Source: Trypanosoma brucei
Taxonomy: Eukaryota
DNA: 64,000 bases
NCBI GenBank assembly: GCA_000002445.1
Contig: AL929603.2
Location: 544,001 to 608,000, forward strand
Reading direction: 5' to 3'
Shown here: positions 41,050-59,481 of the stretch, one piece after another
How positions within the stretch are numbered: position 1 is the first letter of the stretch
Layout: every line of letters begins with the position of its first letter
The notes under the pieces: model-generated
The model's database searches: none
Seen by the model: only the letters and a program-made list of their open reading frames with translations
Told to the model about the DNA's origin: nothing
Made by a program: the position numbers and the translations under genes

Positions 41050-41949
41050 ATGCGCGAAATCGTCTGCGTTCAGGCTGGCCAATGCGGCAACCAGATCGGC
41101 TCAAAGTTCTGGGAGGTGATCAGTGACGAGCACGGTGTGGACCCCACAGGTACCTACCAGGGTGACTCTGACCTGCAGCTGGAGCGCATCAATGTGTACT
41201 TTGATGAGGCAACGGGAGGTCGCTATGTGCCCCGCTCCGTGCTGATTGATCTGGAGCCAGGTACAATGGACTCCGTACGTGCTGGCCCCTATGGTCAGAT
41301 CTTCCGCCCCGACAACTTCATCTTTGGACAGTCTGGCGCCGGCAACAACTGGGCAAAGGGCCACTACACGGAGGGTGCGGAACTGATCGACTCTGTGCTC
41401 GATGTGTGCTGCAAGGAGGCGGAGAGCTGTGACTGCCTCCAGGGCTTCCAGATCTGCCACTCCCTTGGTGGTGGTACTGGCTCCGGCATGGGTACGCTGC
41501 TCATCTCGAAGCTTCGCGAGCAGTACCCTGACCGTATCATGATGACTTTCTCCATCATCCCATCCCCCAAGGTGTCCGACACTGTCGTCGAGCCGTACAA
41601 TACGACTCTCTCCGTGCACCAACTTGTGGAAAACTCCGATGAGTCGATGTGCATTGACAACGAGGCACTGTACGATATTTGCTTCCGCACCCTGAAACTG
41701 ACAACACCAACGTTCGGTGACCTGAACCACTTGGTGTCTGCTGTTGTGTCCGGCGTCACCTGCTGCCTGCGCTTCCCTGGTCAGTTGAACTCTGACCTCC
41801 GTAAGTTGGCTGTGAACCTTGTCCCATTCCCGCGTCTGCACTTCTTCATGATGGGCTTCGCCCCGCTGACCAGCCGCGGCTCGCAGCAGTACCGCGGTCT
41901 CTCCGTGCCCGAGCTAACGCAGCAGATGTTCGATGCGAAAAACATGATG
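41050..41949 (+). pseudogene. Beta-tubulin copy 5, truncated after codon ~300 (…FDAKNMM) by a retrotransposon insertion.
   Basis: Identical to the other beta copies up to 41949. It then reads into the ingi 5' end (…[18 protein letters not shown]…) instead of …[10 protein letters not shown]…. Confidence 0.9.
41938..41949. repeat. Target-site duplication (left copy) AAAAACATGATG.
   Basis: The same 12-mer recurs at 47168-47179, immediately after the element's A-tail. A 12-bp TSD is characteristic of ingi/RIME. Confidence 0.8.
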
Positions 41950-42070
41950 CCCCTGGTGATGCTGGCCACCTCATCGTGGTGCCAGGGTCCAGTACCTCGC
42001 CTATGCGTGGGAAGCCAAGAGCCGGCAACCGCCATCTTTGTAAGGAAGTGCCTGCGGGTGCGTCATCGTT

Positions 42071-42934
42071 TTGCCATGGGACAAGCAGAGTCAGGCTGAG
42101 ACAAAGTGTTATCAATGTCTGTCCTTAGGTACGTGCAGACGTGCCATCAGTAGTATTATTCGCGCCCAGAAACTGATGAATGGTGATGTGGAAAGTAAAT
42201 TAGACCCTGTATTCCGTGGCACCCAGTGGAACTGCGCTGCGCTCACACAGGGCAAGCGGTTAGCTCTTCATAGGATGCTCATTGAGGATAGGGTAAGCTT
42301 CTGCTTACTGTGCGAAACGAATTTTTCCTCTCTGGAAGAACAGATTCTCCATCCTCTACTTTTGCAACACGACGGAGCAGAAAGGGATGCAAACGGTGGT
42401 GGAGTATCTATTCTGATACAAAAAGTCCTCCGGGTGGAAGTCGGTGAGAAGAAAGTGGGACAGCTAGAACATGTAAGCGCCACTATCCACGTATCAGAGG
42501 AAGACAAACTAACGCTCACGTCAGCCTATTTTCCAAGAGGACGAAGCGCTGTGAACTTGGGAAAACTTGTCGCATTGAAGAGAGATGTGCAATACGTCAT
42601 AGGCGCCGACGTGAATTTACATTTGTGTCTATGGGATAGAGAGGTCCCTCCTGATGCAGGAGGTGAAGCAATGACTACTTGGTGTGTTGATACAGGTTAT
42701 ATTGTAGCAAATACAGCTGACCGCACCAGATATGACTATGCACGAAACCTCGGATCGTCCCCTGACGTAACGCTGAACCGGGAATGTCAAATTATCAATT
42801 GGACGGCTACAGAGACACCGGACAGTGATCACTACGTCATCTTATTTCAGTCATCGTCGGAAACGATGAGATCCCGATTGCCCTTGCTTGTCTGGACCGA
42901 GCGCTATTCTCTTGAAAGAAAGCCGACTGGGTGA
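42071..42934 (+). pseudogene. ingi ORF fragment: degenerate apurinic/apyrimidinic-endonuclease-like domain.
   Basis: Position immediately downstream of the RIME-like 5' end. It is not in frame with the downstream RT segments. Confidence 0.6.
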
Positions 42935-43625
42935 AATTCAATGCCTACACCAAGCAAGAAAGCAAGAAGATCGGAAACTCGGGGAAAATACACAAAAACG
43001 CCCCCATTTTAGGTAATATTATCCGGGACGCGACAGTGAAAGCTGTCCCCCGCGGCTCCTTTTTCCAAAAGCCTTTGTGAACGAAGGAGTTAACAGAGAG
43101 AGATGAGAAGATACGATGCGTCCAACATCTTCGAGAGAGGCCATCTCTTGTCTCCCAGCGAAAAAAACTGCTAATGGAAGTCTCCACCAAACGATGGCAT
43201 GAGACTTGCAACAAGTTTGCAGTTTCTGAGAGTAACAGTTGGCATATCGTAAAGAATGTTTTCTCACAAAAAACCCTAGTCACACCAGCAGTGAGGGCAG
43301 ACAACAGAATCCTGGCGCAGAAGCAGCACGCACAGAGTCTCATAGATATATACCCTGAATAGTCGAAGCGGCACCCGGATGTTGCGCAAGCTCCTTCGAT
43401 TTCCCTCCCAAAACAGATGCCATACAGGCGTATCTCCATGGGAGAATTGAACACAACCCTAAGGTATATACCAAATGGTTCTGCTCCTGGAAACAATATG
43501 CAGTGGATTGAGAGGCTCTCAAGCACCTCAACAAATATGGAAGGCGTTTACTACCACGATTATTCAATCGCAGTTTATACGCTGGTGAGGATCCGCAACC
43601 GTGGAAAAAAGGTGTCATCATTCCA

Positions 43626-44545
43626 TTGTTGAAAGTGGGAAAGCCATCCATTGACCTAGCATCCTTCAGGCCTGTTACCTTAACAAGTACGGTCTTAAAG
43701 GTCATGGAAAAGATTGTCTGCGCAAGGATCCGTAACACTGTCGAATCGAAATTGAAAGTGCAGCAATCAGGATTCAGCACGGGTAACTCTACACTAGACC
43801 AGCTCTTACACCTAATGGCAGCTCTATGTAGACCTCACCACGATGACAGGAAAGGGGCTGTATTTGCTTATTACCCGGAGGCATTCGACACGGTAGATCA
43901 TGCAACAGCGGTTCGTGCCATGCAGGAAATGGGAATACCAACTTACACTGTGAAATGGACCGCTACCTTACTACAGGGAAGAAAAAAACAAGTAAGGGTA
44001 AAGAAGGTGTTTTCGGGGAACAGGGAGTTCACACGAGGGGTTCCACAAGGTACAGTCCTAGGTCCCCTCTTATCATAGTGGTGAACTCTCTCAGTAAACG
44101 CCTCAACCAAATTCCTGGTCTAGGACATGGCTTCTTCGCAGACGATCTAACTCTCTCATGTCGTCACTCTGATAGAAACATAGTCCAGGAAACGCTCCAA
44201 GCAGGGCTAAACGCAGTAGCAGCATGGAGCCGAGAGACTTATATGGGCATTAATGTGGATAAGACCAAATACACACTATTTGGCGCCAAGAACAGAAACT
44301 CACTACTTCTGTTGGTGAACGGGAAACCTATCGATGAAGATAGAAATCCCAAGATACTTGGCATCACATTACAGTCATATAGTGGTTTCTCCACCCATGT
44401 CGAGGGGGTTAAAAAGGCAGTGGATATGCGACTACTGCAACTTGCTGCAATCTCATCAACTTCTTGGGGACCACGAACCAACACGATCAGGACGTTCTAC
44501 ATTGCCCTGACTCGTGCAAAGATCTTGTACGGCGTGGCGATTTAG
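43626..44545 (+). pseudogene. ingi ORF fragments: reverse-transcriptase domain, interrupted by a frameshift near 43955-44078.
   Basis: RT motifs FRPVTL..., GVPQGTVLGPLLS and F-A-D-D (YxDD-like). Two overlapping frames are needed to read through. Confidence 0.75.
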
Positions 44546-47167
44546 TATCATAATGCCAACTACTTCAATCAGGAAGAGCTAGAGTGTTCCCAAAACAGAG
44601 CGTGCAGAATTCTCTCCGGAACGGTGAGAGGTTGAAACAGTACAGACGCGCGCCTAGAGGCCAACTTAACGTCCCTTAGAGAAGCCGCGACGATACGGGG
44701 TCTGAAGTACCTGATACGCTGCCAGCCACGAGATAGATACCTAAAAGAGAGTGCGGAGTTAGTATATCACCCAAGTTATCCTGTCCGAAAGTTACTGAAT
44801 GATGTAAAGCGTGAATACCCACAACTTCAGGTAGAATCCGCACACACCACAGAGTGGTGTCCATATTTCTGGATACAGCGAACAGATGTCTGTTTCACTA
44901 CGCCATTCCCCCGAATGTGAACAGAGACTCGGAGGAAGAACTCAAACGTGAGACATCCGAAAGATGGATAAAGCGCCGTTATTAGAAGAAAAGGGCAATA
45001 ACCCTGTCGCTCTATCACACTACGAAGTGTGGACAGACGGATCTGTAACACTGGAGGAAAATCAGGAGCGGCAGCTCTCATCGTCAAGAATGGCAAACTC
45101 CTGCACAAAGTGCTCGAAGGAACGGGACGACTTGCATGCAGCTATAGAGCTGAATGTGTAGTCCTAATAATTGGCCTGAAACAACTGTCCAAAGAGATCG
45201 ATAAAGCAGAAAAACAAAACTTCCGATTATTGATATTTACGGACTCATGGTCAATGGTAGCAGCTCTGCACGCGGGCCCGCTTACAGTTACAGACACAGT
45301 ACTGCGCTAAATATGGACACTACTCATCCAACTCCAAAGTAAAGGAGGACGGATTCGTATTCAGTTCATATTTGGTCACTGTGGAATAGCGGGTAATGAG
45401 CAAGCTGACGCAGCAGAGCAACCACAAATGCGAACTGCATGGATACCGGAGGTGGTTGCAGCAGCGAAAAGGCTGCTGCGCACTACAAGGGAAAAGCCAC
45501 AAACACATAGGGCCACACTTACTGGACACTGGAAGAACACAAACCTCAAGACCTCGCTGTCCAGAAAAGAATAAACCCTACTGACTCAACTCCGCACGGG
45601 TGCAGCACCTACGTACGGTTGGGTGAACAGGAAATTGAACCCTAATATCCCCAACACATGCAGATGGTGTTGCAATGTGGCAAAAAGCCAGACAGTGGAG
45701 CTCGTGAGTGTGAGACCAACATCCACACGTGCAAGCGATCCAACAGTTTGCCCAATTTGTGGGCTGCGATGCTCGAACCGGCAAAATGGCGCTATACACA
45801 TGCAACGAACCCATGGAGTCCAATACGAGCAGGGCAAACGGCGACTCAAATTCCCGCGAGGAGATGGAGGAGGATTCCAATTTGGCCCTCCCACCTCCCG
45901 AACCGCCGCCAAACACAGAAACACCGCAAACCGCTGCGGATACTATTATGTATCCCTGCTTGATCTGCGAGAGGACCTTCAAATCGAAGACTTGGCAAAC
46001 AAGGCACAGAGAGACCGCACACCCGGGTGTAGCACCACCGCGCGGAACAACAGAAAACCCAGAGGGAAGTGAACAAACAACATAATCGGAGAACACTCTT
46101 CAGTGTGCCCTGTGTTCTTTTGTACACAAGTCCAAGGGTGGATTAACAAACCACCGAAGAGTCCAGCACCCAGATCAAAAGGTCACGATAGCAACCAGGA
46201 AGAGCGGAAGGGATTCGGCGAATCGACGGGAAGTAGAGGAGGAGGAACCATCAGCTACCTCGCTCCATTGTACATGCTGCGATTTCATAGAGAAATCAAA
46301 GAGTGGGTTAGCTGCGCACTGTAGGTATAGGCACCTCCAAACAGTCTAGTCTATCACTACAGTTTCAAAAAAGAGACCAAGGACCCCCACTCCAGAGAAT
46401 AGATCGCAGAAAGTACGGACGGAAAGAGTCGAAGGAAGATATCAGTGTGATCACTGCGAGAAGACATACGCCACACCATCCACTCTAATACGCCACTACA
46501 GGGCGAAAAATAGTGGAAGCGTATGTCAGCTCTCTAGCACCGAGGCAGCTCCGGCAGGACGACGATACGTGAAGGTTACAGTGCCGACGCATGAGTGTAC
46601 CGAGTGCGGCACCAAGTGCTACTCAAAAGCAGGACTAACGCGTCATCAACAAACTGCACATGGTTTGAAGCTGGAAACCCCTCTCCCCCAGATGCATGAA
46701 TGCGAAGAGTCACCTAGGCACCTACTCGTGTACCCAGGACTCGCTACACTGCGTCAACGATTCTTCAAGGATGACACACCTCTCGAAAAGTTGCTGTACA
46801 GTGAAGAGTTAACAAAATTCCTACTGGAACTGGAAAAACTCTCACAAAAGGTACCGCCAGAAAGTAAAGGCCGAACGCCGGATATCGAATCAGCTGACCC
46901 TCGTAGTGATTGCCCTCCGTCTAGGAGATATCAAACTTCTGTCTCCCCCCCCCCTGTCGGATCGCGTGGGAAGCGGAAACGCTCACCATTTCCTCGATGA
47001 GCCCCTGTGTACACAGTTAGTCTCCCCCGTCCATATTAAGACGGAGCCTGGGTCTCGTCAGCCCAGAAACTCTCCCCCCTTCACCACAAAGCAGGCACCA
47101 ACGTTCGAATAGGACTGCTGGTGGTACGCTGCCAAATATCTCTTTGAGATAATTGCGCGTTATATTA

Positions 47168-47179
47168 AAAAAACATGAT
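47168..47179. repeat. Target-site duplication (right copy) AAAAACATGATG.
   Basis: Direct repeat of the beta-tubulin sequence at 41938-41949. Confidence 0.8.
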
Positions 47180-47180
47180 G

Positions 47181-48140
47181 CCCCTGCACCCGCAGCAGAT
47201 TCCCTCAAAGAGCTGACGGTTGCAGGGGCTTGGCTTCCCCCGCATAGGCGAGGTACTGGACCCTGGTACCACGATGAGGTGGCCGGCTGAGCCAGGGTGC
47301 GGAAGCCAAGGGCCTGCGACACCCGAAAGGGCTAACAAGCTTAGGTTTCTACTTGTTGGGAAAACGGATAGTGGAAACCACCCTAGTGGTTGGTTGGTCG
47401 CTCGCACTGTGCGCTACAGTACTGCGGATGCAGAGATTGGACCTTGCAAGGGTTTAATTTCGCACGATTGCAAGCTTCTGCTGTTACTGTGTGGATACTT
47501 TGAGCGCAATCCTGGACCCCTCCGGTTTGTGCAGCAGAACGTTAACGGTGTCTCAGCAGTAAAGCTATCAAGCCTACTTGCTCTAGATGCAGACGTCTAT
47601 CTTCTTCCGGAGGTGAAGAAGTTGCGTGAGGCGTCTCGCATCTGTAAGGTCCCGCCATACACAGTTTACTGTAGCCCCCCGAACGCTCGGGGTGGAAGAG
47701 TTGCCATCTTGGTGCACCAACGAAGCAGCATCCAGACCAGGAGTGTGACATGGAAAGCACTCCCAAACGACACTGGCATCAAAGCCGTAACTGTGAAATT
47801 GTGATAGGTAATACTCATCTGGGTATAGTGAATGTTTACATCCCCCCACCACCGAGCATCACTGGATCCTTCGCTACCCTTCTGCAGACCTTGGAAAATA
47901 ACTGCTCTATTATTGAGGGAAACTTCAATGTTTTCCACCCACTATGGTGGAGCGAGGTCGGTCAATAAAACAGGTCGGACAAGTTCTTTTACCTGTCCAC
48001 CTATGCATATTCGAACTGCAAAACATCCTTGACGCGGTAACACGAAGCTAAGGCAATCAGAAAAGCGCCCTGGACCTCACCCCGTCTCGTTTGGATGATG
48101 CAATGCAACGGACCACGCTATTGTAGCTAGACAGCGATCA
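47181..48140 (+). mobile_element. 3'-truncated ingi/RIME-like 5' fragment (~1 kb) with a rearranged (partly inverted) 5' terminus and a degenerate endonuclease domain.
   Basis: It starts 'CCCCTG...' like ingi. 'GGTACTGGACCCTGGTACCACGATGAGGTGGCC' is the reverse complement of the ingi 5' end. The ORF 47220-47804 contains the APE-like motifs LRFVQQNVNG and DADVYLLPEVK, and continues after a frameshift at 47750-47968 (GNFNVFHPLWW). It ends abruptly where H3-repeat homology begins. Confidence 0.65.
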
Positions 48141-48495
48141 CAAAGGGATCACATTTATGCTCGAAAAAGCATGCGAAATGATTATTCTCATCCCCTTTAT
48201 CCCTAGCCTCTTCCACTTTCCAACTTCCCTCCTCTGCCTCCTCTCACCCTTTTGTTTTTGTATTTCCCTTTTATTTTACATTTTCACCCCACCATCAGCG
48301 TCCTTTCACTGGCTTTGTGGCACCGCTTCCTTCTTAGTAGCGGTTCTTTTGCACAACCGCATGCACACATACATCCCTTTGAATGTCATACCTCCCTCCT
48401 CTCTCTTTCTCTTTTTTTTTTCTGTTACATCTCATACTAGAAAGCTAAAAAGCTACTTTACCACAACTCTCAAACCAAGCAACAAACTAAAAGAC

Positions 48496-48897
48496 ATGTC
48501 GAGGACCAAGGAAACCGCCAGGACGAAGAAGACCATCACCTCCAAGAAGAGCAAGAAGGCCTCAAAGGGTTCTGATGCCGCATCTGGCGTAAAGACCGCC
48601 CAACGCCGCTGGAGGCCCGGCACCGTGGCACTCCGTGAAATCCGCCAGTTCCAACGCTCCACCGACCTGCTGCTACAAAAGGCACCATTTCAACGCCTGG
48701 TCCGTGAGGTGTCTGGTGCCCAAAAGGAGGGTCTGCGCTTCCAGAGTAGCGCTATTCTCGCCGCACAGGAAGCGACTGAGTCGTACATTGTGTCGCTGCT
48801 TGCCGATACCAACCGCGCATGCATTCACAGTGGGCGTGTGACAATCCAACCAAAGGACATTCACCTTGCCCTCTGCCTACGCGGTGAACGTGCATAA
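48496..48897 (+). CDS. H3: Histone H3 (copy 1), 133 aa.
   Basis: [25 protein letters not shown]...[53 protein letters not shown] is a trypanosomatid-type divergent H3. It is preceded by a polypyrimidine tract and an AG. The six-frame ORF is a spurious N-terminal extension. Confidence 0.93.
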
Positions 48898-49984
48898 GAA
48901 GGTACAGAAATGCGTAATTGAGTGAGTGAGTATGAATATGAGTAGGTGTGTGTGTATGTATGTATGTATGCGTGAGGGTCAGGGTTGAGACAAATATTCA
49001 GATTAGAGAAAGAAAGAAAGAGAGAGAGAGCACTGCAAAGCATGCATGCATGTATATGTATATATGTGTGTATGTTTATGTGCATGACCTTCTTTCTCTT
49101 TCCCCTTCTCCTCTCTGTTGCTCTCCTCTACGTTCCACTTGCATGCATAACACATACTTCCTTCTTGTAACTGCTCCCTTTCTCTCATTACACTGTGTAG
49201 CCTTTACTTTCTTTCCCCTCTTCCCCTCACTACAAAGACACTGTGTGTCCGACCCTCCTAACTTGCTCCTGCTCACAGCGGTTTCCAGTCGCATTAGCCA
49301 TCGTCACACGGTACCACACAATGATGCCTTGTGATTTGTTTTGCCTTTTGCTACTATTCATCGGAGGCCGTGCGTGGCGTGCGCGGATTGTTGTGCAGGT
49401 GTACCTGCCGGCGTGTCCCCGCTGCGCGGTTGGGGAAGAGACAAGTTTAGGGGGCTGTTGTGACACAGTTAGATTTTCCACGTCACCTCCAGCGGTGCGG
49501 ATGCCTCCACTTCAGGTGTGGTTCCCCATTCCCCCGTATATCTTTCTTTCTTTCTTTTCGTCTGCTCATTCCACTCTGGGTGCAATATCCGGGAGTGTGG
49601 AATAAGAGTTGAGATTGGGGTTAAGATGAGGGTAAAGGGGAGTGGAGGGGCGACGTGGGAGAGACGGATGGCCAGATGGAAAGGGAAAGAAAGGTGTGAA
49701 AGTGTGGAGGTAACGAGATATTGGGTGAGGGTGACTGATAGAGGACAGCATCTGTGAATGTGTGGTTACTCTTCTCCCCTTTATCCCTAGCCTCTTCCAC
49801 TTTCCAACTTCCCTCCTCTGCCTCCTCTCACCCTTTTGTTTTTGTATTTCCCTTTTATTTTACATTTTCACCCCACCATCAGCATCCTTTCACTGGCTTT
49901 GTACCACCGCTTCCTTCTTAGTAGCGGTTCTTTTGCACAACCGCATGCACACATACATCCCTTTGAATTTCATACCTCCCTCCT

Positions 49985-50036
49985 CTCTCTTTCTCTTTTT
50001 TTTTCTGTTACATCTCATACTAGAAAGCTAAAAAGC
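49985..50036 (+). promoter_or_regulatory. Polypyrimidine tract plus AG, a putative trans-splice acceptor region upstream of H3. The same element occurs in every H3 unit.
   Basis: 'cctccctcctctctctttctctttttttttctgttacatctcatactag' sits ~45 nt upstream of the H3 ATG. Trypanosomatid mRNAs are processed by SL trans-splicing at an AG downstream of a polypyrimidine tract. Confidence 0.5.
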
Positions 50037-50078
50037 TACTTTACCACAACTCTCAAACCAAGCAACAAACTAAAAGAC

Positions 50079-50480
50079 ATGTCGAGGACCAAGGAAACCG
50101 CCAGGACGAAGAAGACCATCACCTCCAAGAAGAGCAAGAAGGCCTCAAAGGGTTCTGATGCCGCATCTGGCGTAAAGACCGCCCAACGCCGCTGGAGGCC
50201 CGGCACCGTGGCACTCCGTGAAATCCGCCAGTTCCAACGCTCCACCGACCTGCTGCTACAAAAGGCACCATTTCAACGCCTGGTCCGTGAGGTGTCTGGT
50301 GCCCAAAAGGAGGGTCTGCGCTTCCAGAGTAGCGCTATTCTCGCCGCACAGGAAGCGACTGAGTCGTACATTGTGTCGCTGCTTGCCGATACCAACCGCG
50401 CATGCATTCACAGTGGGCGTGTGACAATCCAACCAAAGGACATTCACCTTGCCCTCTGCCTACGCGGTGAACGTGCATAA
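50079..50480 (+). CDS. H3: Histone H3 (copy 2).
   Basis: Identical protein. Confidence 0.93.
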
Positions 50481-51662
50481 GAAGGTACAGAAATGCGTAA
50501 TTGAGTGAGTGAGTATGAATATGAGTAGGTGTGTGTGTATGTATGTATGTATGCGTGAGGGTCAGGGTTGAGACAAATATTCAGATTAGAGAAAGAAAGA
50601 AAGAGAGAGAGAGCACTGCAAAGCATGCATGCATGTATATGTATATATGTGTGTATGTTTATGTGCATGACCTTCTTTCTCTTTCCCCTTCTCCTCTCTG
50701 TTGCTCTCCTCTACGTTCCACTTGCATGCATAGCACATACTTCCTTCTTGTAACTGCTCCCTTTCTCTCATTACACTGTGTAGCCTTTACTTTCTTTCCC
50801 CTCTTCCCCTCACTACAAAGACACTGTGTGTCCGACCCTCCTAACTTGCTCCTACTCACAGCGGTTTCCAGTCGCATTAGCCATCGTCACACGGTACCAC
50901 ACAATGATGCCTTGTGATTTGTTTTGCCTTTTGCTACTATTCATCGGAGGCCGTGCGTGGCGTGCGCGGATTGTTGTGCAGGTGTACCTGCCGGCGTGTC
51001 CCCGCTGCGCGGTTGGGGAAGAGACAAGTTTAGGGGGCTGTTGTGACACAGTTAGATTTTCCACGTCACCTCCAGCGGTGCGGATGCCTCCACTTCAGGT
51101 GTGGTTCCCCATTCCCCCGTATATCTTTCTTTCTTTCTTTTCGTCTGCTCATTCCACTCTGGGTGCAATATCCGGGAGTGTGGAATAAGAGTTGAGATTG
51201 GGGTTAAGATGAGGGTAAAGGGGAGTGGAGGGGCGACGTGGGAGAGACGGATGGCCAGATGGAAAGGGAAAGAAAGGTGTGAAAGTGTGGAGGTAACGAG
51301 ATATTGGGTGAGGGTGACTGATAGAGGACAGCATCTGTGAATGTGTGGTTACTCTTCTCCCCTTTATCCCTAGCCTCTTCCACTTTCCAACTTCCCTCCT
51401 CTGCCTCCTCTCACCCTTTTGTTTTTGTATTTCCCTTTTATTTTACATTTTCACCCCACCATCAGCATCCTTTCACTGGCTTTGTACCACCGCTTCCTTC
51501 TTAGTAGCGGTTCTTTTGCACAACCGCATGCACACATACATCCCTTTGAATTTCATACCTCCCTCCTCTCTCTTTCTCTTTTTTTTTTCTGTTACATCTC
51601 ATACTAGAAAGCTAAAAAGCTACTTTACCACAACTCTCAAACCAAGCAACAAACTAAAAGAC

Positions 51663-52064
51663 ATGTCGAGGACCAAGGAAACCGCCAGGACGAAGAAGAC
51701 CATCACCTCCAAGAAGAGCAAGAAGGCCTCAAAGGGTTCTGATGCCGCATCTGGCGTAAAGACCGCCCAACGCCGCTGGAGGCCCGGCACCGTGGCACTC
51801 CGTGAAATCCGCCAGTTCCAACGCTCCACCGACCTGCTGCTACAAAAGGCACCATTTCAACGCCTGGTCCGTGAGGTGTCTGGTGCCCAAAAGGAGGGTC
51901 TGCGCTTCCAGAGTAGCGCTATTCTCGCCGCACAGGAAGCGACTGAGTCGTACATTGTGTCGCTGCTTGCCGATACCAACCGCGCATGCATTCACAGTGG
52001 GCGTGTGACAATCCAACCAAAGGACATTCACCTTGCCCTCTGCCTACGCGGTGAACGTGCATAA
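51663..52064 (+). CDS. H3: Histone H3 (copy 3).
   Basis: Identical protein. Confidence 0.93.
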
Positions 52065-53254
52065 GAAGGTACAGAAATGCGTAATTGAGTGAGTGAGTAT
52101 GAATATGAGTAGGTGTGTGTGTATGTATGTATGTATGTATGTATGCGTGAGGGTCAGGGTTGAGACAAATATTCAGATTAGAGAAAGAAAGAAAGAGAGA
52201 GAGAGCACTGCAAAGCATGCATGCATGCATATATATATATGTGTGTATGTTTATGTGCATGACCTTCTTTCTCTTTCCCCTTCTCCTCTCTGTTGCTCTC
52301 CTCTACGTTCCACTTGCATGCATAACACATACTTCCTTCTTGTAACTGCTCCCTTTCTCTCATTACACTGTGTAGCCTTTACTTTCTTTCCCCTCTTCCC
52401 CTCACTACAAAGACACTGTGTGTCCGACCCTCCTAACTTGCTCCTACTCACAGCGGTTTCCAGTCGCATTAGCCATCGTCACACGGTACCACACAATGAT
52501 GCCTTGTGATTTGTTTTGCCTTTTGCTACTGTTCATCGGAGGCCGTGCGTGGCGTGCGCGGATTGTTGTGCAGGTGTACCTGCCGGCGTGTCCCCGCTGC
52601 GCGGTTGGGGAAGAGACAAGTTTAGGGGGCTGTTGTGACACAGTTAGATTTTCCACGTCACCTCCAGCGGTGCGGATGCCTCCACTTCAGGTGTGGTTCC
52701 CCATTCCCCCGTATATCTTTCTTTCTTTCTTTTCGTCTGCTCATTCCACTCTGGGTGCAATATCCGGGAGTGTGGAATAAGAGTTGAGATTGGGGTTAAG
52801 ATGAGGGTAAAGGGGAGTGGAGGGGCGACGTGGGAGAGACGGATGGCCAGATGGAAAGGGAAAGAAAGGTGTGAAAGTGTGGAGGTAACGAGATATTGGG
52901 TGAGGGTGACTGATAGAGGACAGCATCTGTGAATGTGTGGTTACTCTTCTCCCCTTTATCCCTAGCCTCTTCCACTTTCCAACTTCCCTCCTCTGCCTCC
53001 TCTCACCCTTTTGTTTTTGTATTTCCCTTTTATTTTACATTTTCACCCCACCATCAGCATCCTTTCACTGGCTTTGTACCACCGCTTCCTTCTTAGTAGC
53101 GGTTCTTTTGCACAACCGCATGCACACATACATCCCTTTGAATGTCATACCTCCCTCCTCTCTCTTTCTCTTTTTTTTTTCTGTTACATCTCATACTAGA
53201 AAGCTAAAAAGCTACTTTACCACAACTCTCAAACCAAGCAACAAACTAAAAGAC

Positions 53255-53656
53255 ATGTCGAGGACCAAGGAAACCGCCAGGACGAAGAAGACCATCACCT
53301 CCAAGAAAAGCAAGAAGGCCTCAAAGGGTTCTGATGCCGCATCTGGCGTAAAGACCGCCCAACGCCGCTGGAGGCCCGGCACCGTGGCACTCCGTGAAAT
53401 CCGCCAGTTCCAACGCTCCACCGACCTGCTGCTACAAAAGGCACCATTTCAACGCCTGGTCCGTGAGGTGTCTGGTGCCCAAAAGGAGGGTCTGCGCTTC
53501 CAGAGTAGCGCTATTCTCGCCGCACAGGAAGCGACTGAGTCGTACATTGTGTCGCTGCTTGCCGATACCAACCGCGCATGCATTCACAGTGGGCGTGTGA
53601 CAATCCAACCAAAGGACATTCACCTTGCCCTCTGCCTACGCGGTGAACGTGCATAA
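53255..53656 (+). CDS. H3: Histone H3 (copy 4).
   Basis: Identical protein, with one synonymous change (AAG>AAA, Lys). Confidence 0.93.
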
Positions 53657-54840
53657 GAAGGTACAGAAATGCGTAATTGAGTGAGTGAGTATGAATATGA
53701 GTAGGTGTGTGTGTATGTATGTATGTATGTATGCGTGAGGGTCAGGGTTGAGACAAATATTCAGATTAGAGAAAGAAAGAAAGAAAGAGAGAGCACTGCA
53801 AAGCATGCATGCATGCATATATATATGTGTGTATGTTTATGTGCATGACCTTCTTTCTCTTTCCCCTTCTCCTCTCTGTTGCTCTCCTCTACGTTCCACT
53901 TGCATGCATAACACATACTTCCTTCTTGTAACTGCTCCCTTTCTCTCATTACACTGTGTAGCCTTTACTTTCTTTCCCCTCTTCCCCTCACTACAAAGAC
54001 ACTGTGTGTCCGACCCTCCTAACTTGCTCCTGCTCACAGCGGTTTCCAGTCGCATTAGCCATCGTCACACGGTACCACACAATGATGCCTTGTGATTTGT
54101 TTTGCCTTTTGCTACTATTCATCGGAGGCCGTGCGTGGCGTGCGCGGATTGTTGTGCAGGTGTACCTGCCGGCGTGTCCCCGCTGCGCGGTTGGGGAAGA
54201 GACAAGTTTAGGGGGCTGTTGTGACACAGTTAGATTTTCCACGTCACCTCCAGCGGTGCGGATGCCTCCACTTCAGGTGTGGTTCCCCATTCCCCCGTAT
54301 ATCTTTCTTTCTTTCTTTTCGTCTGCTCATTCCACTCTGGGTGCAATATCCGGGAGTGTGGAATAAGAGTTGAGATTGGGGTTAAGATGAGGGTAAAGGG
54401 GAGTGGAGGGGCGACGTGGGAGAGACGGATGGCCAGATGGAAAGGGAAAGAAAGGTGTGAAAGTGTGGAGGTAACGAGATATTGGGTGAGGGTGACTGAT
54501 AGAGGACAGCATCTGTGAATGTGTGGTTACTCTTCTCCCCTTTATCCCTAGCCTCTTCCACTTTCCAACTTCCCTCCTCTGCCTCCTCTCACCCTTTTGT
54601 TTTTGTATTTCCCTTTTATTTTACATTTTCACCCCACCATCAGCATCCTTTCGCTGGCTTTGTACCACCGCTTCCTTCTTAGTAGCGGTTCTTTTGCACA
54701 ACCGCATGCACACATACATCCCTTTGAATGTCATACCTCCCTCCTCTCTCTTTCTCTTTTTTTTTTCTGTTACATCTCATACTAGAAAGCTAAAAAGCTA
54801 CTTTACCACAACTCTCAAACCAAGCAACAAACTAAAAGAC

Positions 54841-55242
54841 ATGTCGAGGACCAAGGAAACCGCCAGGACGAAGAAGACCATCACCTCCAAGAAGAGCAAG
54901 AAGGCCTCAAAGGGTTCTGATGCCGCATCTGGCGTAAAGACCGCCCAACGCCGCTGGAGGCCCGGCACCGTGGCACTCCGTGAAATCCGCCAGTTCCAAC
55001 GCTCCACCGACCTGCTGCTACAAAAGGCACCATTTCAACGCCTGGTCCGTGAGGTGTCTGGTGCCCAAAAGGAGGGTCTGCGCTTCCAGAGTAGCGCTAT
55101 TCTCGCCGCACAGGAAGCGACTGAGTCGTACATTGTGTCGCTGCTTGCCGATACCAACCGCGCATGCATTCACAGTGGGCGTGTGACAATCCAACCAAAG
55201 GACATTCACCTTGCCCTCTGCCTACGCGGTGAACGTGCATAA
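54841..55242 (+). CDS. H3: Histone H3 (copy 5).
   Basis: Identical protein. Confidence 0.93.
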
Positions 55243-56426
55243 GAAGGTACAGAAATGCGTAATTGAGTGAGTGAGTATGAATATGAGTAGGTGTGTGTGT
55301 ATGTATGTATGTATGCGTGAGGGTCAGGGTTGAGACAAATATTCAGATTAGAGAAAGAAAGAAAGAAAGAGAGAGCACTGCAAAGCATGCATGCATGTAT
55401 ATGTATATATATGTGTGTATGTTTATGTGCATGACCTTCTTTCTCTTTCCCCTTCTCCTCTCTGTTGCTCTCCTCTACGTTCCACTTGCATGCATAACAC
55501 ATACTTCCTTCTTGTAACTGCTCCCTTTCTCTCATTACACTGTGTAGCCTTTACTTTCTTTCCCCTCTTCCCCTCACTACAAAGACACTGTGTGTCCGAC
55601 CCTCCTAACTTGCTCCTACTCACAGCGGTTTCCAGTCGCATTAGCCATCGTCACACGGTACCACACAATGATGCCTTGTGATTTGTTTTGCCTTTTGCTA
55701 CTATTCATCGGAGGCCGTGCGTGGCGTGCGCGGATTGTTGTGCAGGTGTACCTGCCGGCGTGTCCCCGCTGCGCGGTTGGGGAAGAGACAAGTTTAGGGG
55801 GCTGTTGTGACACAGTTAGATTTTCCACGTCACCTCCAGCGGTGCGGATGCCTCCACTTCAGGTGTGGTTCCCCATTCCCCCGTATATCTTTCTTTCTTT
55901 CTTTTCGTCTGCTCATTCCACTCTGGGTGCAATATCCGGGAGTGTGGAATAAGAGTTGAGATTGGGGTTAAGATGAGGGTAAAGGGGAGTGGAGGGGCGA
56001 CGTGGGAGAGACGGATGGCCAGATGGAAAGGGAAAGAAAGGTGTGAAAGTGTGGAGGTAACGAGATATTGGGTGAGGGTGACTGATAGAGGACAGCATCT
56101 GTGAATGTGTGGTTACTCTTCTCCCCTTTATCCCTAGCCTCTTCCACTTTCCAACTTCCCTCCTCTGCCTCCTCTCACCCTTTTGTTTTTGTATTTCCCT
56201 TTTATTTTACATTTTCACCCCACCATCAGCATCCTTTCACTGGCTTTGTACCACCGCTTCCTTCTTAGTAGCGGTTCTTTTGCACAACCGCATGCACACA
56301 TACATCCCTTTGAATGTCATACCTCCCTCCTCTCTCTTTCTCTTTTTTTTTTCTGTTACATCTCATACTAGAAAGCTAAAAAGCTACTTTACCACAACTC
56401 TCAAACCAAGCAACAAACTAAAAGAC

Positions 56427-56828
56427 ATGTCGAGGACCAAGGAAACCGCCAGGACGAAGAAGACCATCACCTCCAAGAAGAGCAAGAAGGCCTCAAAGGG
56501 TTCTGATGCCGCATCTGGCGTAAAGACCGCCCAACGCCGCTGGAGGCCCGGCACCGTGGCACTCCGTGAAATCCGCCAGTTCCAACGCTCCACCGACCTG
56601 CTGCTACAAAAGGCACCATTTCAACGCCTGGTCCGTGAGGTGTCTGGTGCCCAAAAGGAGGGTCTGCGCTTCCAGAGTAGCGCTATTCTCGCCGCACAGG
56701 AAGCGACTGAGTCGTACATTGTGTCGCTGCTTGCCGATACCAACCGCGCATGCATTCACAGTGGGCGTGTGACAATCCAACCAAAGGACATTCACCTTGC
56801 CCTCTGCCTACGCGGTGAACGTGCATAA
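56427..56828 (+). CDS. H3: Histone H3 (copy 6).
   Basis: Identical protein. Confidence 0.93.
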
Positions 56829-58010
56829 GAAGGTACAGAAATGCGTAATTGAGTGAGTGAGTATGAATATGAGTAGGTGTGTGTGTGTGTATGTATGTAT
56901 GCGTGAGGGTCAGGGTTGAGACAAATATTCAGATTAGAGAAAGAAAGAAAGAGAGAGAGAGCACTGCAAAGCATGCATGCATGTATATGTATATATGTGT
57001 GTATGTTTATGTGCATGACCTTCTTTCTCTTTCCCCTTCTCCTCTCTGTTGCTCTCCTCTACGTTCCACTTGCATGCATAGCACATACTTCCTTCTTGTA
57101 ACTGCTCCCTTTCTCTCATTACACTGTGTAGCCTTTACTTTCTTTCCCCTCTTCCCCTCACTACAAAGACACTGTGTGTCCGACCCTCCTAACTTGCTCC
57201 TGCTCACAGCGGTTTCCAGTCGCATTAGCCATCGTCACACGGTACCACACAATGATGCCTTGTGATTTGTTTTGCCTTTTGCTACTATTCATCGGAGGCC
57301 GTGCGTGGCGTGCGCGGATTGTTGTGCAGGTGTACCTGCCGGCGTGTCCCCGCTGCGCGGTTGGGGAAGAGACAAGTTTAGGGGGCTGTTGTGACACAGT
57401 TAGATTTTCCACGTCACCTCCAGCGGTGCGGATGCCTCCACTTCAGGTGTGGTTCCCCATTCCCCCGTATATCTTTCTTTCTTTCTTTTCGTCTGCTCAT
57501 TCCACTCTGGGTGCAATATCCGGGAGTGTGGAATAAGAGTTGAGATTGGGGTTAAGATGAGGGTAAAGGGGAGTGGAGGGGCGACGTGGGAGAGACGGAT
57601 GGCCAGATGGAAAGGGAAAGAAAGGTGTGAAAGTGTGGAGGTAACGAGATATTGGGTGAGGGTGACTGATAGAGGACAGCATCTGTGAATGTGTGGTTAC
57701 TCTTCTCCCCTTTATCCCTAGCCTCTTCCACTTTCCAACTTCCCTCCTCTGCCTCCTCTCACCCTTTTGTTTTTGTATTTCCCTTTTATTTTACATTTTC
57801 ACCCCACCATCAGCATCCTTTCACTGGCTTTGTACCACCGCTTCCTTCTTAGTAGCGGTTCTTTTGCACAACCGCATGCACACATACATCCCTTTGAATG
57901 TCATACCTCCCTCCTCTCTCTTTCTCTTTTTTTTTTCTGTTACATCTCATACTAGAAAGCTAAAAAGCTACTTTACCACAACTCTCAAACCAAGCAACAA
58001 ACTAAAAGAC

Positions 58011-58412
58011 ATGTCGAGGACCAAGGAAACCGCCAGGACGAAGAAGACCATCACCTCCAAGAAGAGCAAGAAGGCCTCAAAGGGTTCTGATGCCGCATCT
58101 GGCGTAAAGACCGCCCAACGCCGCTGGAGGCCCGGCACCGTGGCACTCCGTGAAATCCGCCAGTTCCAACGCTCCACCGACCTGCTGCTACAAAAGGCAC
58201 CATTTCAACGCCTGGTCCGTGAGGTGTCTGGTGCCCAAAAGGAGGGTCTGCGCTTCCAGAGTAGCGCTATTCTCGCCGCACAGGAAGCGACTGAGTCGTA
58301 CATTGTGTCGCTGCTTGCCGATACCAACCGCGCATGCATTCACAGTGGGCGTGTGACAATCCAACCAAAGGACATTCACCTTGCCCTCTGCCTACGCGGT
58401 GAACGTGCATAA
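58011..58412 (+). CDS. H3: Histone H3 (copy 7).
   Basis: Identical protein. Confidence 0.93.
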
Positions 58413-59481
58413 GAAGGTACAGAAATGCGTAATTGAGTGAGTGAGTATGAATATGAGTAGGTGTGTGTGTATGTATGTATGTATGCGTGAGGGTCAGGGT
58501 TGAGACAAATATTCAGATTAGAGAAAGAAAGAAAGAAAGAGAGAGCACTGCAAAGCATGCATGCATGTATATGTATATATATGTGTATGTTTATGTGCAT
58601 GACCTTCTTTCTCTTTCCCCTTCTCCTCTCTGTTGCTCTCCTCTACGTTCCACTTGCATGCATAACACATACTTCCTTCTTGTAACTGCTCCCTTTCTCT
58701 CATTACACTGTGTAGCCTTTACTTTCTTTCCCCTCTTCCCCTCACTACAAAGACACTGTGTGTCCGACCCTCCTAACTTGCTCCTACTCACAGCGGTTTC
58801 CAGTCGCATTAGCCATCGTCACACGGTACCACACAATGATGCCTTGTGATTTGTTTTGCCTTTTGCTACTGTTCATCGGAGGCCGTGCGTGGCGTGCGCG
58901 GATTGTTGTGCAGGTGTACCTGCCGGCGTGTCCCCGCTGCGCGGTTGGGGAAGAGACAAGTTTAGGGGGCTGTTGTGACACAGTTAGATTTTCCACGTCA
59001 CCTCCAGCGGTGCGGATGCCTCCACTTCAGGTGTGGTTCCCCATTCCCCCGTATATCTTTCTTTCTTTCTTTTCGTCTGCTCATTCCACTCTGGGTGCAA
59101 TATCCGGGAGTGTGGAATAAGAGTTGAGATTGGGGTTAAGATGAGGGTAAAGGGGAGTGGAGGGGCGACGTGGGAGAGACGGATGGCCAGATGGAAAGGG
59201 AAAGAAAGGTGTGAAAGTGTGGAGGTAACGAGATATTGGGTGAGGGTGACTGATAGAGGACAGCATCTGTGAATGTGTGGTTACTCTTCTCCCCTTTATC
59301 CCTAGCCTCTTCCACTTTCCAACTTCCCTCCTCTGCCTCCTCTCACCCTTTTGTTTTTGTATTTCCCTTTTAATTTACACCTTTTTTTTATTTACACTTT
59401 TTGTATGATGTTTTTTTTTTTTTGCTGTTATCCCTTTTCTTTTTTTTTTGTATTGAAGTATTGATTTTTAGTGTCGTGAGT

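Follow-up and report, generated by a model that had tools for sequence, protein, structure and literature searches.

An apparent composite scar of two different dead retroposons between the tubulin and histone H3 arrays of Trypanosoma brucei

Results

The locus and its target-site duplication

The DNA considered here is a stretch of 64,000 nucleotides (nt) from chromosome 1 of Trypanosoma brucei, which we call the window. Its position ~41952 equals NC_008409:585951, a coordinate of a 2015 survey of ingi and RIME elements that shares the same 100-nt upstream flank. Along the window an array of alpha- and beta-tubulin genes gives way to a truncated last beta-tubulin, a 5.2-kb retroposon (41950-47167), the composite interval that is the subject of this work, an array of histone H3 genes and a coatomer-like gene. 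An earlier look at the letters alone (below, the original prediction) had proposed that two retroelement events separate tubulin from H3, and had read the second as one ingi-like element with an inverted, 'snap-back' 5′ terminus. There is indeed a further remnant beyond the first element, but its two arms come from two retroposon families. Judged by its sequence, the interval combines pieces of two different dead retroposons into one scar, with one of the two pieces inverted.

The four intact beta-tubulin copies read GATGCGAAAAACATGATG and then CAAGCTGCAG; a fifth GATGCGAAAAACATGATG, at 41932, leads directly into the 5.2-kb element. Here lies the left copy of a 12-bp target-site duplication, AAAAACATGATG (41938-41949), inside the last, truncated beta-tubulin, where it continues a stretch of tubulin coding sequence that all five copies share without difference. 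The right copy (47169-47180) is identical to it at 12/12 positions and stands behind the short A-run of the 5.2-kb element. The duplication can equally well be read as AAAACATGATGC, in which case the element starts at the canonical CCCTGG. It is composed purely of tubulin sequence, and the tubulin sequence ends exactly where the duplication does. Past 47180 comes CCCCTGCACCC, rather than the CAAGCTGCAG of the four intact copies, so the remark in the original prediction that beta-tubulin is not resumed there was right.

The neighbouring element

Trypanosomatids carry degenerate elements related to ingi and L1Tc, which are called DIREs (Bringaud et al. 2002-2011; PMC3820030). Elements of the L1Tc/ingi group carry at their 5′ end the Pr77 hallmark, an internal RNA polymerase II promoter combined with a ribozyme like that of hepatitis delta virus (HDV) (PMC4748587, PMC4035085), and a published supplementary alignment lists the Pr77 of a DIRE named 'Tb1b' (TbDIRE1) (PMC4748587). 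The 5.2-kb retroposon on the plus strand, which had been described as a full-length ingi, is this catalogued DIRE and not a canonical Tbingi. It is full-length and degenerate, with many broken open reading frames (ORFs). We identify it as Tb1b because its Pr77 (41951-42029) is 95% identical to the published Tb1b, allowing for transcription noise, and 85% to the Tbingi consensus, and because only nt 1-46 of the element (NC_008409:585951-585996) appear in the 2015 survey of chromosome 1.

Two further features of this element may be recorded. Ahead of its APE endonuclease Tb1b has a decayed 2A motif, GDVESKLDP (42182-42208). In addition, a chimeric ORF of 349 amino acids (41050-42099) runs from beta-tubulin through the duplication into the Pr77 of Tb1b. 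In T. b. gambiense the ORF of 349 amino acids at the equivalent position is called a tubulin gene (L001 3787-4836), and a database look-up of the tubulin::Tb1b chimeric ORF found no record.

The inverted arm

Behind the right copy of the duplication, at a distance of 5 nt, begins the inverted arm (47186-47298, minus strand). By blastn and local alignment it is the 5′-terminal ~112 nt of a TbDIRE1-type retroposon, comprising a complete Pr77 and ~35 nt beyond it. When 47100-48300 was compared with the window by blastn, the sole minus-strand match paired 47186-47287 with 42061-41961 (85.4% over 103 nt, E 6.8e-27). In the local alignment the arm is colinear with positions 2-112 of the Tb1b 5′ end, and CCAGGG at 47293-47298, the complement of the element's first six bases, shows that it reaches element position 1. 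A 33-nt core of Pr77 lies at 47252-47284 on the minus strand with 1 mismatch, where shuffled sequences lead us to expect 0, and the score of the post-Pr77 part (positions 81-112) against Tb1b was reached by 0/2000 shuffles. The original prediction had seen the reverse complement of a retroposon 5′ end within the first ~120 nt, directly beside the duplication, and had allowed that the match might prove to be below chance. The E-value and the Pr77 core put it above chance, and the inversion lies where it had been placed.

Several states of the arm are specific to TbDIRE1. It shares with Tb1b a T at position 24, CCTCGCCTATGCG at positions 45-57 and the stretch 81-112, none of which occurs in the consensus sequences of ingi, RIME, L1Tc or Tcoingi. 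These Pr77 states and the post-Pr77 sequence place it in the TbDIRE1 (Tb1b-type) family rather than in canonical Tbingi/RIME, as do the identities of 80% to the ingi Pr77 consensus and 86% to Tb1b. The 2015 survey dataset has no ingi/RIME entry at the arm's position. At about six positions (7, 8-10, which match L1Tc only, 13 and 58) the arm agrees with the ingi/L1Tc consensus, unlike Tb1b. Since it keeps ancestral, consensus states that Tb1b lacks, we take the arm to be a sister copy, that is, an independent and older member of the TbDIRE1 family that was apparently not duplicated from Tb1b.

The Pr77 of the arm is full-length, and its downstream promoter element (DPE), CGTG, is intact at +25 to +28, the DPE position being that defined for Pr77 (PMC4748587). 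In this it resembles the hallmark of L1Tc/ingi elements. It differs in that this Pr77, a putative promoter, faces away from any retroposon body, is antisense to the surrounding polycistron and, with its DPE intact, would drive transcription into Tb1b and tubulin. A scan of 41800-48400 against Rfam at E <= 1 gave no match, and no HDV-like ribozyme model detects either Pr77. As a separate observation, 41961-42061 and 47186-47287 form a 103-nt inverted repeat of 85% identity, 5.2 kb apart and presumably within one polycistronic transcript, so that a long-range RNA stem between the Tb1b head and the inverted arm could form.

The duplication is separated from the colinear stretch of the arm by the five nucleotides CCCCT (47181-47185), which match neither tubulin nor Tb1b, where ...GATGAC would be expected. 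They form the outer part of the left arm of a terminal palindrome, GCCCCTGCACCCG (47180-47192) and CGGTTGCAGGGGC (47217-47229), with 24 nt between the arms and 12/13 positions complementary. The original prediction had noticed a short palindrome at the start of the interval; it is real, with its arms corrected to these coordinates. An equal palindrome arose in only 2/1000 shuffles, and the Tb1b 5′ end has none. Folded as DNA the region gives two adjacent hairpins (z = -3.8), with the palindrome forming a hairpin.

The forward element

From 47297 to 48162 the interval continues on the plus strand as a second, 5′-truncated DIRE. At its head the signature of Pr77 (76-79 bp when complete) is reduced to positions ~57-80 (GTGCGGAAGCCAAGGGCCTGCGAC, 47297-47320), which are identical to Tb1b at 21/24 nt; positions 1-56 are missing. 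The remnant forms an inverted repeat with 47219-47238. It also contains a forward GGAAGCCAAG at 47301-47310, of which the window holds 3 copies where 0.17 are expected. A leader follows (47321-47492) whose DNA is similar neither to Tb1b (p = 0.6) nor to the inverted arm. Behind it comes a decayed 2A-like peptide, GYFERNPGP (47493-47519), which aligns with GDVESNPGP, the canonical form in a Leptomonas relative.

The rest is a complete APE endonuclease pseudogene (47520-48162, in three frame segments, 47520-47801, 47801-47959 and 47956-48162) that ends just past the SDH motif. It carries 2 frameshifts and 4 in-frame stops. The motifs quoted in the original prediction (LRFVQQNVNG, DADVYLLPEVK and GGRVAILV) are present, and the stitched domain passes the cut-off of Pfam PF14529 (E 4.9e-9). 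From the 2A motif onwards the stitched domain is colinear with the Leptomonas seymouri protein KPI83371 (38% over 233 amino acids, E 1e-46), the final 11 residues of the coding homology lying at 48130-48162. Homology thus runs to 48162 and not, as had been thought, to ~48140 with some 40 bp left before H3. Just 16 nt (48163-48178) separate the last recognisable DIRE codon from the H3 repeat, which starts at 48179.

The native ORF was searched with phmmer against 1.8 billion representatives, giving 12 hits that include two unnamed Logan hits and one not looked up. Apart from the orthologue, every hit with a named source is from a trypanosomatid, and those inspected carry the 2A-APE module of the L1Tc type. 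The best match is again KPI83371 from Leptomonas seymouri (46% over the N-terminal half), which makes Leptomonas the closest protein relative found (38-46%). Further matches come from T. theileri, Angomonas, T. melophagium and T. cruzi L1Tc (30-39%), with identity to L1Tc at ~32% over an N-terminal stretch. Protein-database searches with the ORF of 194 amino acids, the stitched APE and the minus-strand translation of the arm gave no match besides the orthologue in T. b. gambiense and a single ORF of T. grayi, and they turned up no T. brucei paralogue of either arm.

In its content the forward part is a DIRE. It has 2A and complete APE remnants of ingi/L1Tc-type domains, broken by stops and frameshifts, and both the named phmmer matches and the colinearity with Leptomonas are specific to the ingi/L1Tc clade. 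A length of ~5 kb with remnants of reverse transcriptase (RT) and RNase H and a 3′ A-run is not found, as the element ends within 16 nt of H3. When the missing 3′ part was sought beyond the H3 array, the region held no retroposon ORF and only the coatomer-like gene.

The forward DIRE is of a lineage other than that of its neighbour, an L1Tc/Leishmaniinae-like one. We conclude this because its APE has no significant BLASTP similarity to that of Tb1b, because it is closer to the Leptomonas element (38%) than the APE of Tb1b is (26%), and because there is no DNA similarity past position 80. The forward-orientation sequence of the original prediction is therefore there, complete with Pr77 positions 57-80, but it belongs to this other lineage and is not canonical Tbingi/RIME.

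An ORF of 176 amino acids at 47274-47804 (L001 10001-10531) bears the label 'T. brucei spp.-specific protein' in the annotation of T. b. gambiense DAL972. Its frame in fact reads through the inverted Pr77 and the DIRE leader into the 2A motif and the first, N-terminal half of the APE pseudogene.

In two distant trypanosomatids, T. theileri (L004 560-960) and Angomonas deanei (L003 439-800), an L1Tc-like element with Pr77, 2A and APE stands at the same alpha-tubulin codon, and both insertions yield gene models of a chimeric 'tubulin'. It seems that ingi-clade elements have targeted tubulin genes repeatedly.

On the far side, the first H3 repeat unit begins on the plus strand at 48179 (48179-48299), and its first ~15 nt have diverged from the internal units. 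At 4/17 positions this opening is unlike all internal units, which blurs the true left edge of the array. The array as a whole (48179-59398) consists of seven units of ~1585 bp and a terminal partial unit of 100-120 nt (59278-59379).

Comparison of the two arms

If both arms had come from a single RNA, positions 57-112 would have been identical in them at birth. Agreement is found over positions 58-80 only, where they share 17/20 nt. Past position 80 of Pr77 the inverted arm still matches Tb1b and the forward arm does not, by the shuffle and p-values given above. The arms are not colinear there; the match that they show to each other beyond position 80, CTGCGG[G/A]TGCAG, is marginal (p = 0.027) and ~80 nt out of register. 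In the forward arm 2A stands at the normal distance from Pr77, and therefore no deletion hides homology between the arms.

The original prediction had compared the layout with the 5′ inversions of twin priming, and the topology of that process is present. Positions 112 to 2 in reverse complement begin 5 nt from the upstream duplication and run on to CCAGGG (positions 1-6), after which forward sequence starts at position 57. What fails is the derivation of both segments from one RNA, as they are unrelated over 81-112 and their coding families differ.

Two simpler reconciliations were considered and rejected. A 78-nt 'insertion' that would align both arms is at odds with the normal Pr77-to-2A distance and with a residual match that is marginal and out of register. 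The other was that positions 7-112 of a forward element had simply been inverted; the arm, however, takes in positions 1-6, and the position that comes after it is 57 rather than 113.

Conservation in Trypanozoon

The original prediction had proposed a comparison of orthologous junctions, and this gives the same layout in T. b. gambiense and T. equiperdum. Chromosome 1 of T. b. gambiense DAL972 is colinear over 8 kb at 98.1%, with the forward DIRE 98.9% identical. Across the duplication and the arm, 133/133 nt are identical in T. b. gambiense and 132/133 in T. equiperdum, whose contig shares this structure until a scaffold gap interrupts it at the H3 boundary.

A retroposon 3′ end directly behind the T. 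equiperdum DIRE was entertained and rejected, as a scaffold gap of 10 N lies between. Past this gap (L005 1303-1396) come 84 nt that are 89% identical to the Tb1b 3′ end (47097-47179) and an A-run; they look like the tail of another element that scaffolding has brought here from a different locus. The same scaffold has an ESAG1 gene 9 kb further on.

Discussion

The sequence comparisons show the make-up of the interval, the orientation and breakpoints of its pieces, their origin in different families, their order and their conservation across Trypanozoon, and a history of this locus has to accommodate them. Our favoured history, in which we place belief and doubt in about equal measure, is that pieces of two extinct ingi-clade retroposons are stacked in the last beta-tubulin gene on an insertion site that was used again. 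One piece (minus strand, 47186-47298) is the first ~112 nt of a TbDIRE1-type element. The other (plus strand, 47297-48162 or 48178) is a DIRE that lacks positions 1-56 of its Pr77 and everything past the APE.

The forward DIRE would already have stood downstream of the tubulin array when the endonuclease of a TbDIRE1-type element opened a nick in beta-tubulin at ...GCG^AAAAACATGATG^. The 3′ end of the top strand (...ATGATG) would then have primed inside a TbDIRE1 RNA, for which CATC at Tb1b positions 115-118 is a candidate partner, and copying to that RNA's 5′ end would have made the inverted arm. Through a microhomology of 2-3 nt (GTG) the free end may have been joined into the Pr77 of the downstream DIRE, deleting the remaining tubulin gene and the DIRE head. 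A second copy of TbDIRE1, the 5.2-kb Tb1b, would later have inserted at the same nick, duplicating 12 bp and so coming to abut the old junction. It could do so since the upstream target sequence had survived.

Reuse of a site is familiar in this clade. Its elements make a fixed 12-bp duplication and often stand in tandem, separated by a single copy, with the upstream recognition sequence surviving each insertion (PMC3820030). T. brucei and T. cruzi provide documented cases of such tandems, which arise when one recognised site receives insertions repeatedly (PMC3820030). In our interval likewise a single 12-bp copy separates Tb1b from an older block starting at 47181. The duplication is pure tubulin and its right copy is followed by the arm, from which we conclude that the junction between tubulin and arm predates Tb1b and lay at the position of the top-strand nick. 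The order of events, which the original prediction had left open, is in this way partly resolved: the junction came first and Tb1b second. The end of tubulin coincides with the fixed 12-nt top-strand nick position of ingi-clade endonucleases. The simplest reading is that the junction itself was created at that nick by an earlier event, and reuse of one endonuclease site would best explain the exact abutment on the duplication. The arm was probably made in that earlier, aberrant event by top-strand-primed, twin-priming-like reverse transcription. It would have been joined to a pre-existing DIRE with deletion of the DNA between them; we favour microhomology joining of this kind because the product is fused to a DIRE of another family at position 57 and the remainder of tubulin is missing. 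Taken as a whole, the proposal that the arm is the footprint of an abortive top-strand-primed retrotransposition, repaired by microhomology, with the end of the tubulin array deleted and the product fused to a DIRE beside H3, is put forward only tentatively, and we think it possible rather than likely.

Several points weigh against this history. Neither the junction nucleotides CCCCT nor the 13-nt palindrome is predicted by it. The published ingi4 signature fits the tubulin site at 5/7 positions upstream (the top 1.1% of window positions) and at 0/3 inside the duplication; over all its positions the fit is 5/10, a level reached by 9.8% of window positions. The microhomologies are short: the priming site offers GATG/CAUC and the internal junction GTG. 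Among the sequences compared there is no empty site or paralogue, and site reuse, top-strand priming and the joining with its deletion all stay inferred. A search of the literature library, finally, found no match that pairs twin priming with ingi or Trypanosoma.

Alternative histories have to be set against these points. The original prediction implied classical twin priming on a single ingi-like RNA, with inverted head and forward body from the same molecule. The layout of the segments and the position of the inverted part beside the upstream duplication are just what that process gives, and the arms do share sequence over 58-80 besides the marginal match further on. That match, however, is out of register, the stretch 81-112 is Tb1b-like in one arm only, the normal spacing in the forward arm leaves no room for a hidden deletion, and the forward APE is unrelated at the BLASTP level to that of the arm's family. 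A single RNA is accordingly very unlikely, and largely refuted already. The arm might also be a DNA-level inverted duplication, a fold-back copy of Tb1b's own 5′ end made in repair after Tb1b had inserted. The same family in inverted orientation 5.2 kb away, in a region as prone to hairpins as this one, would suit such an origin. Yet the arm keeps consensus states that Tb1b lacks at those six or so positions, it has diverged by 15% where the duplication is identical at 12/12, and although it lies outside the duplication it ends at element position 1-2 and at the nick site, unlike a random fold-back. We give this origin hardly any credence.

Two other histories keep both families and differ in how they met. 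In a heterologous form of twin priming the forward DIRE itself would have inserted at the tubulin site while the top-strand primer copied a co-expressed TbDIRE1 RNA; the 3′ part of the DIRE, its right duplication and the rest of tubulin would have been lost later, when the H3 junction formed. The logic of the junction is the same as in the favoured history and one deletion fewer is called for. The ages are compatible too, since the load of the APE (4 stops and 2 frameshifts in 640 nt) corresponds to ~15% neutral divergence and the arm and Tb1b have diverged similarly, and an ingi6-type signature matches 4/6 positions if the duplication is read as AAAACATGATGC. On the other side, two very different endonucleases would have to act at one nick, or an element of autonomous type would have to be mobilised in trans; the APE domains of the two families, having no significant similarity, are not expected to have a common target, and inverted chimeras of two RNAs have no known precedent. 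We regard this history as rather unlikely. Still somewhat harder to accept is a set of independent events, in which the Pr77 of the forward DIRE received a TbDIRE1/RIME-like element in head-to-head orientation, the body of this minus-strand element and the 3′ part of tubulin were later deleted, and Tb1b arrived at the junction by coincidence. Retroposons do cluster and nest in such inter-array regions, and T. brucei repairs breaks by microhomology-mediated joining, for which the duplication AAAAACATGA, resembling the reverse complement of Tb1b positions 113-124 (AAAACGATGA), could have served. The deletion, though, must end by chance exactly 12 nt from what was later a first-strand nick. The sequence by the 5′ end of the arm, where such a minus-strand insertion would have needed its endonuclease site, fits the ingi4 upstream signature at only 0-3/7 positions, and of a duplication for the minus-strand element there is no trace. 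An independent minus-strand insertion is thus less likely than an aberrant top-strand-primed event, and we judge it unlikely in its own right.

Comparison with known systems helps to characterise the interval. The forward part is like other DIREs in its Pr77 remnant, 2A and L1Tc-clade APE, riddled with stops and frameshifts, and its neighbour is itself a catalogued DIRE. It is unlike them in keeping ~0.9 of roughly 5 kb, with no RT, poly(A) or duplication of its own left, and in having the first 56 nt of its Pr77 replaced by the inverted Pr77 of another DIRE family. A single perfect 12-bp duplication between blocks, with the upstream target intact, recalls the tandem same-site insertions of Tbingi/RIME, L1Tc/NARTc and Tvingi/TvSIDER1 (PMC3820030). 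In the tandems described there both elements run forward from Pr77 position 1, whereas here the older block is an inverted 112-nt head followed by a different family (PMC3820030).

Twin priming with 5′ inversion, and deletions of target DNA mediated by L1, belong to the biology of human LINE-1. The inverted 5′ segment that reaches the first base of the RNA beside the upstream duplication, the microhomology of 2-3 nt and the loss of target DNA all resemble the LINE-1 process. The interval differs in that its inverted and forward segments are not one RNA and that the 3′ end, the poly(A) and the second duplication are missing; moreover, the process is not known to have been described for trypanosomatid elements.

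Conclusions

What the interval combines are known kinds of dead retroposon; it is no new kind of element. It is a fairly ordinary piece of genome archaeology, and the composite scar leaves the current understanding of ingi-clade elements and DIREs unchanged. It does correct labels at a heavily used locus, the beta-tubulin array being a standard integration site. The supposed ingi is DIRE Tb1b, and the 'T. brucei spp.-specific protein' of T. b. gambiense belongs to a second DIRE that had gone unrecognised, of which it covers the leader, the 2A and the N-terminus of the APE.

The analysis also flags an antisense Pr77, intact in sequence, at the boundary of tubulin and H3. If the favoured history is true, a complete, DPE-bearing Pr77 promoter was left in antisense orientation towards Tb1b and the tubulin polycistron. 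This promoter and the 103-nt inverted match to the Tb1b head could jointly give rise to double-stranded RNA or small interfering RNA at the array boundary.

More generally, the interval offers a concrete candidate for twin-priming-like reverse transcription and for the reuse of insertion sites in ingi-clade elements, for which we know of no retrotransposition assay. Should the proposed events prove true, this would be the first trace of twin priming and of retrotransposition-mediated deletion in a trypanosomatid.

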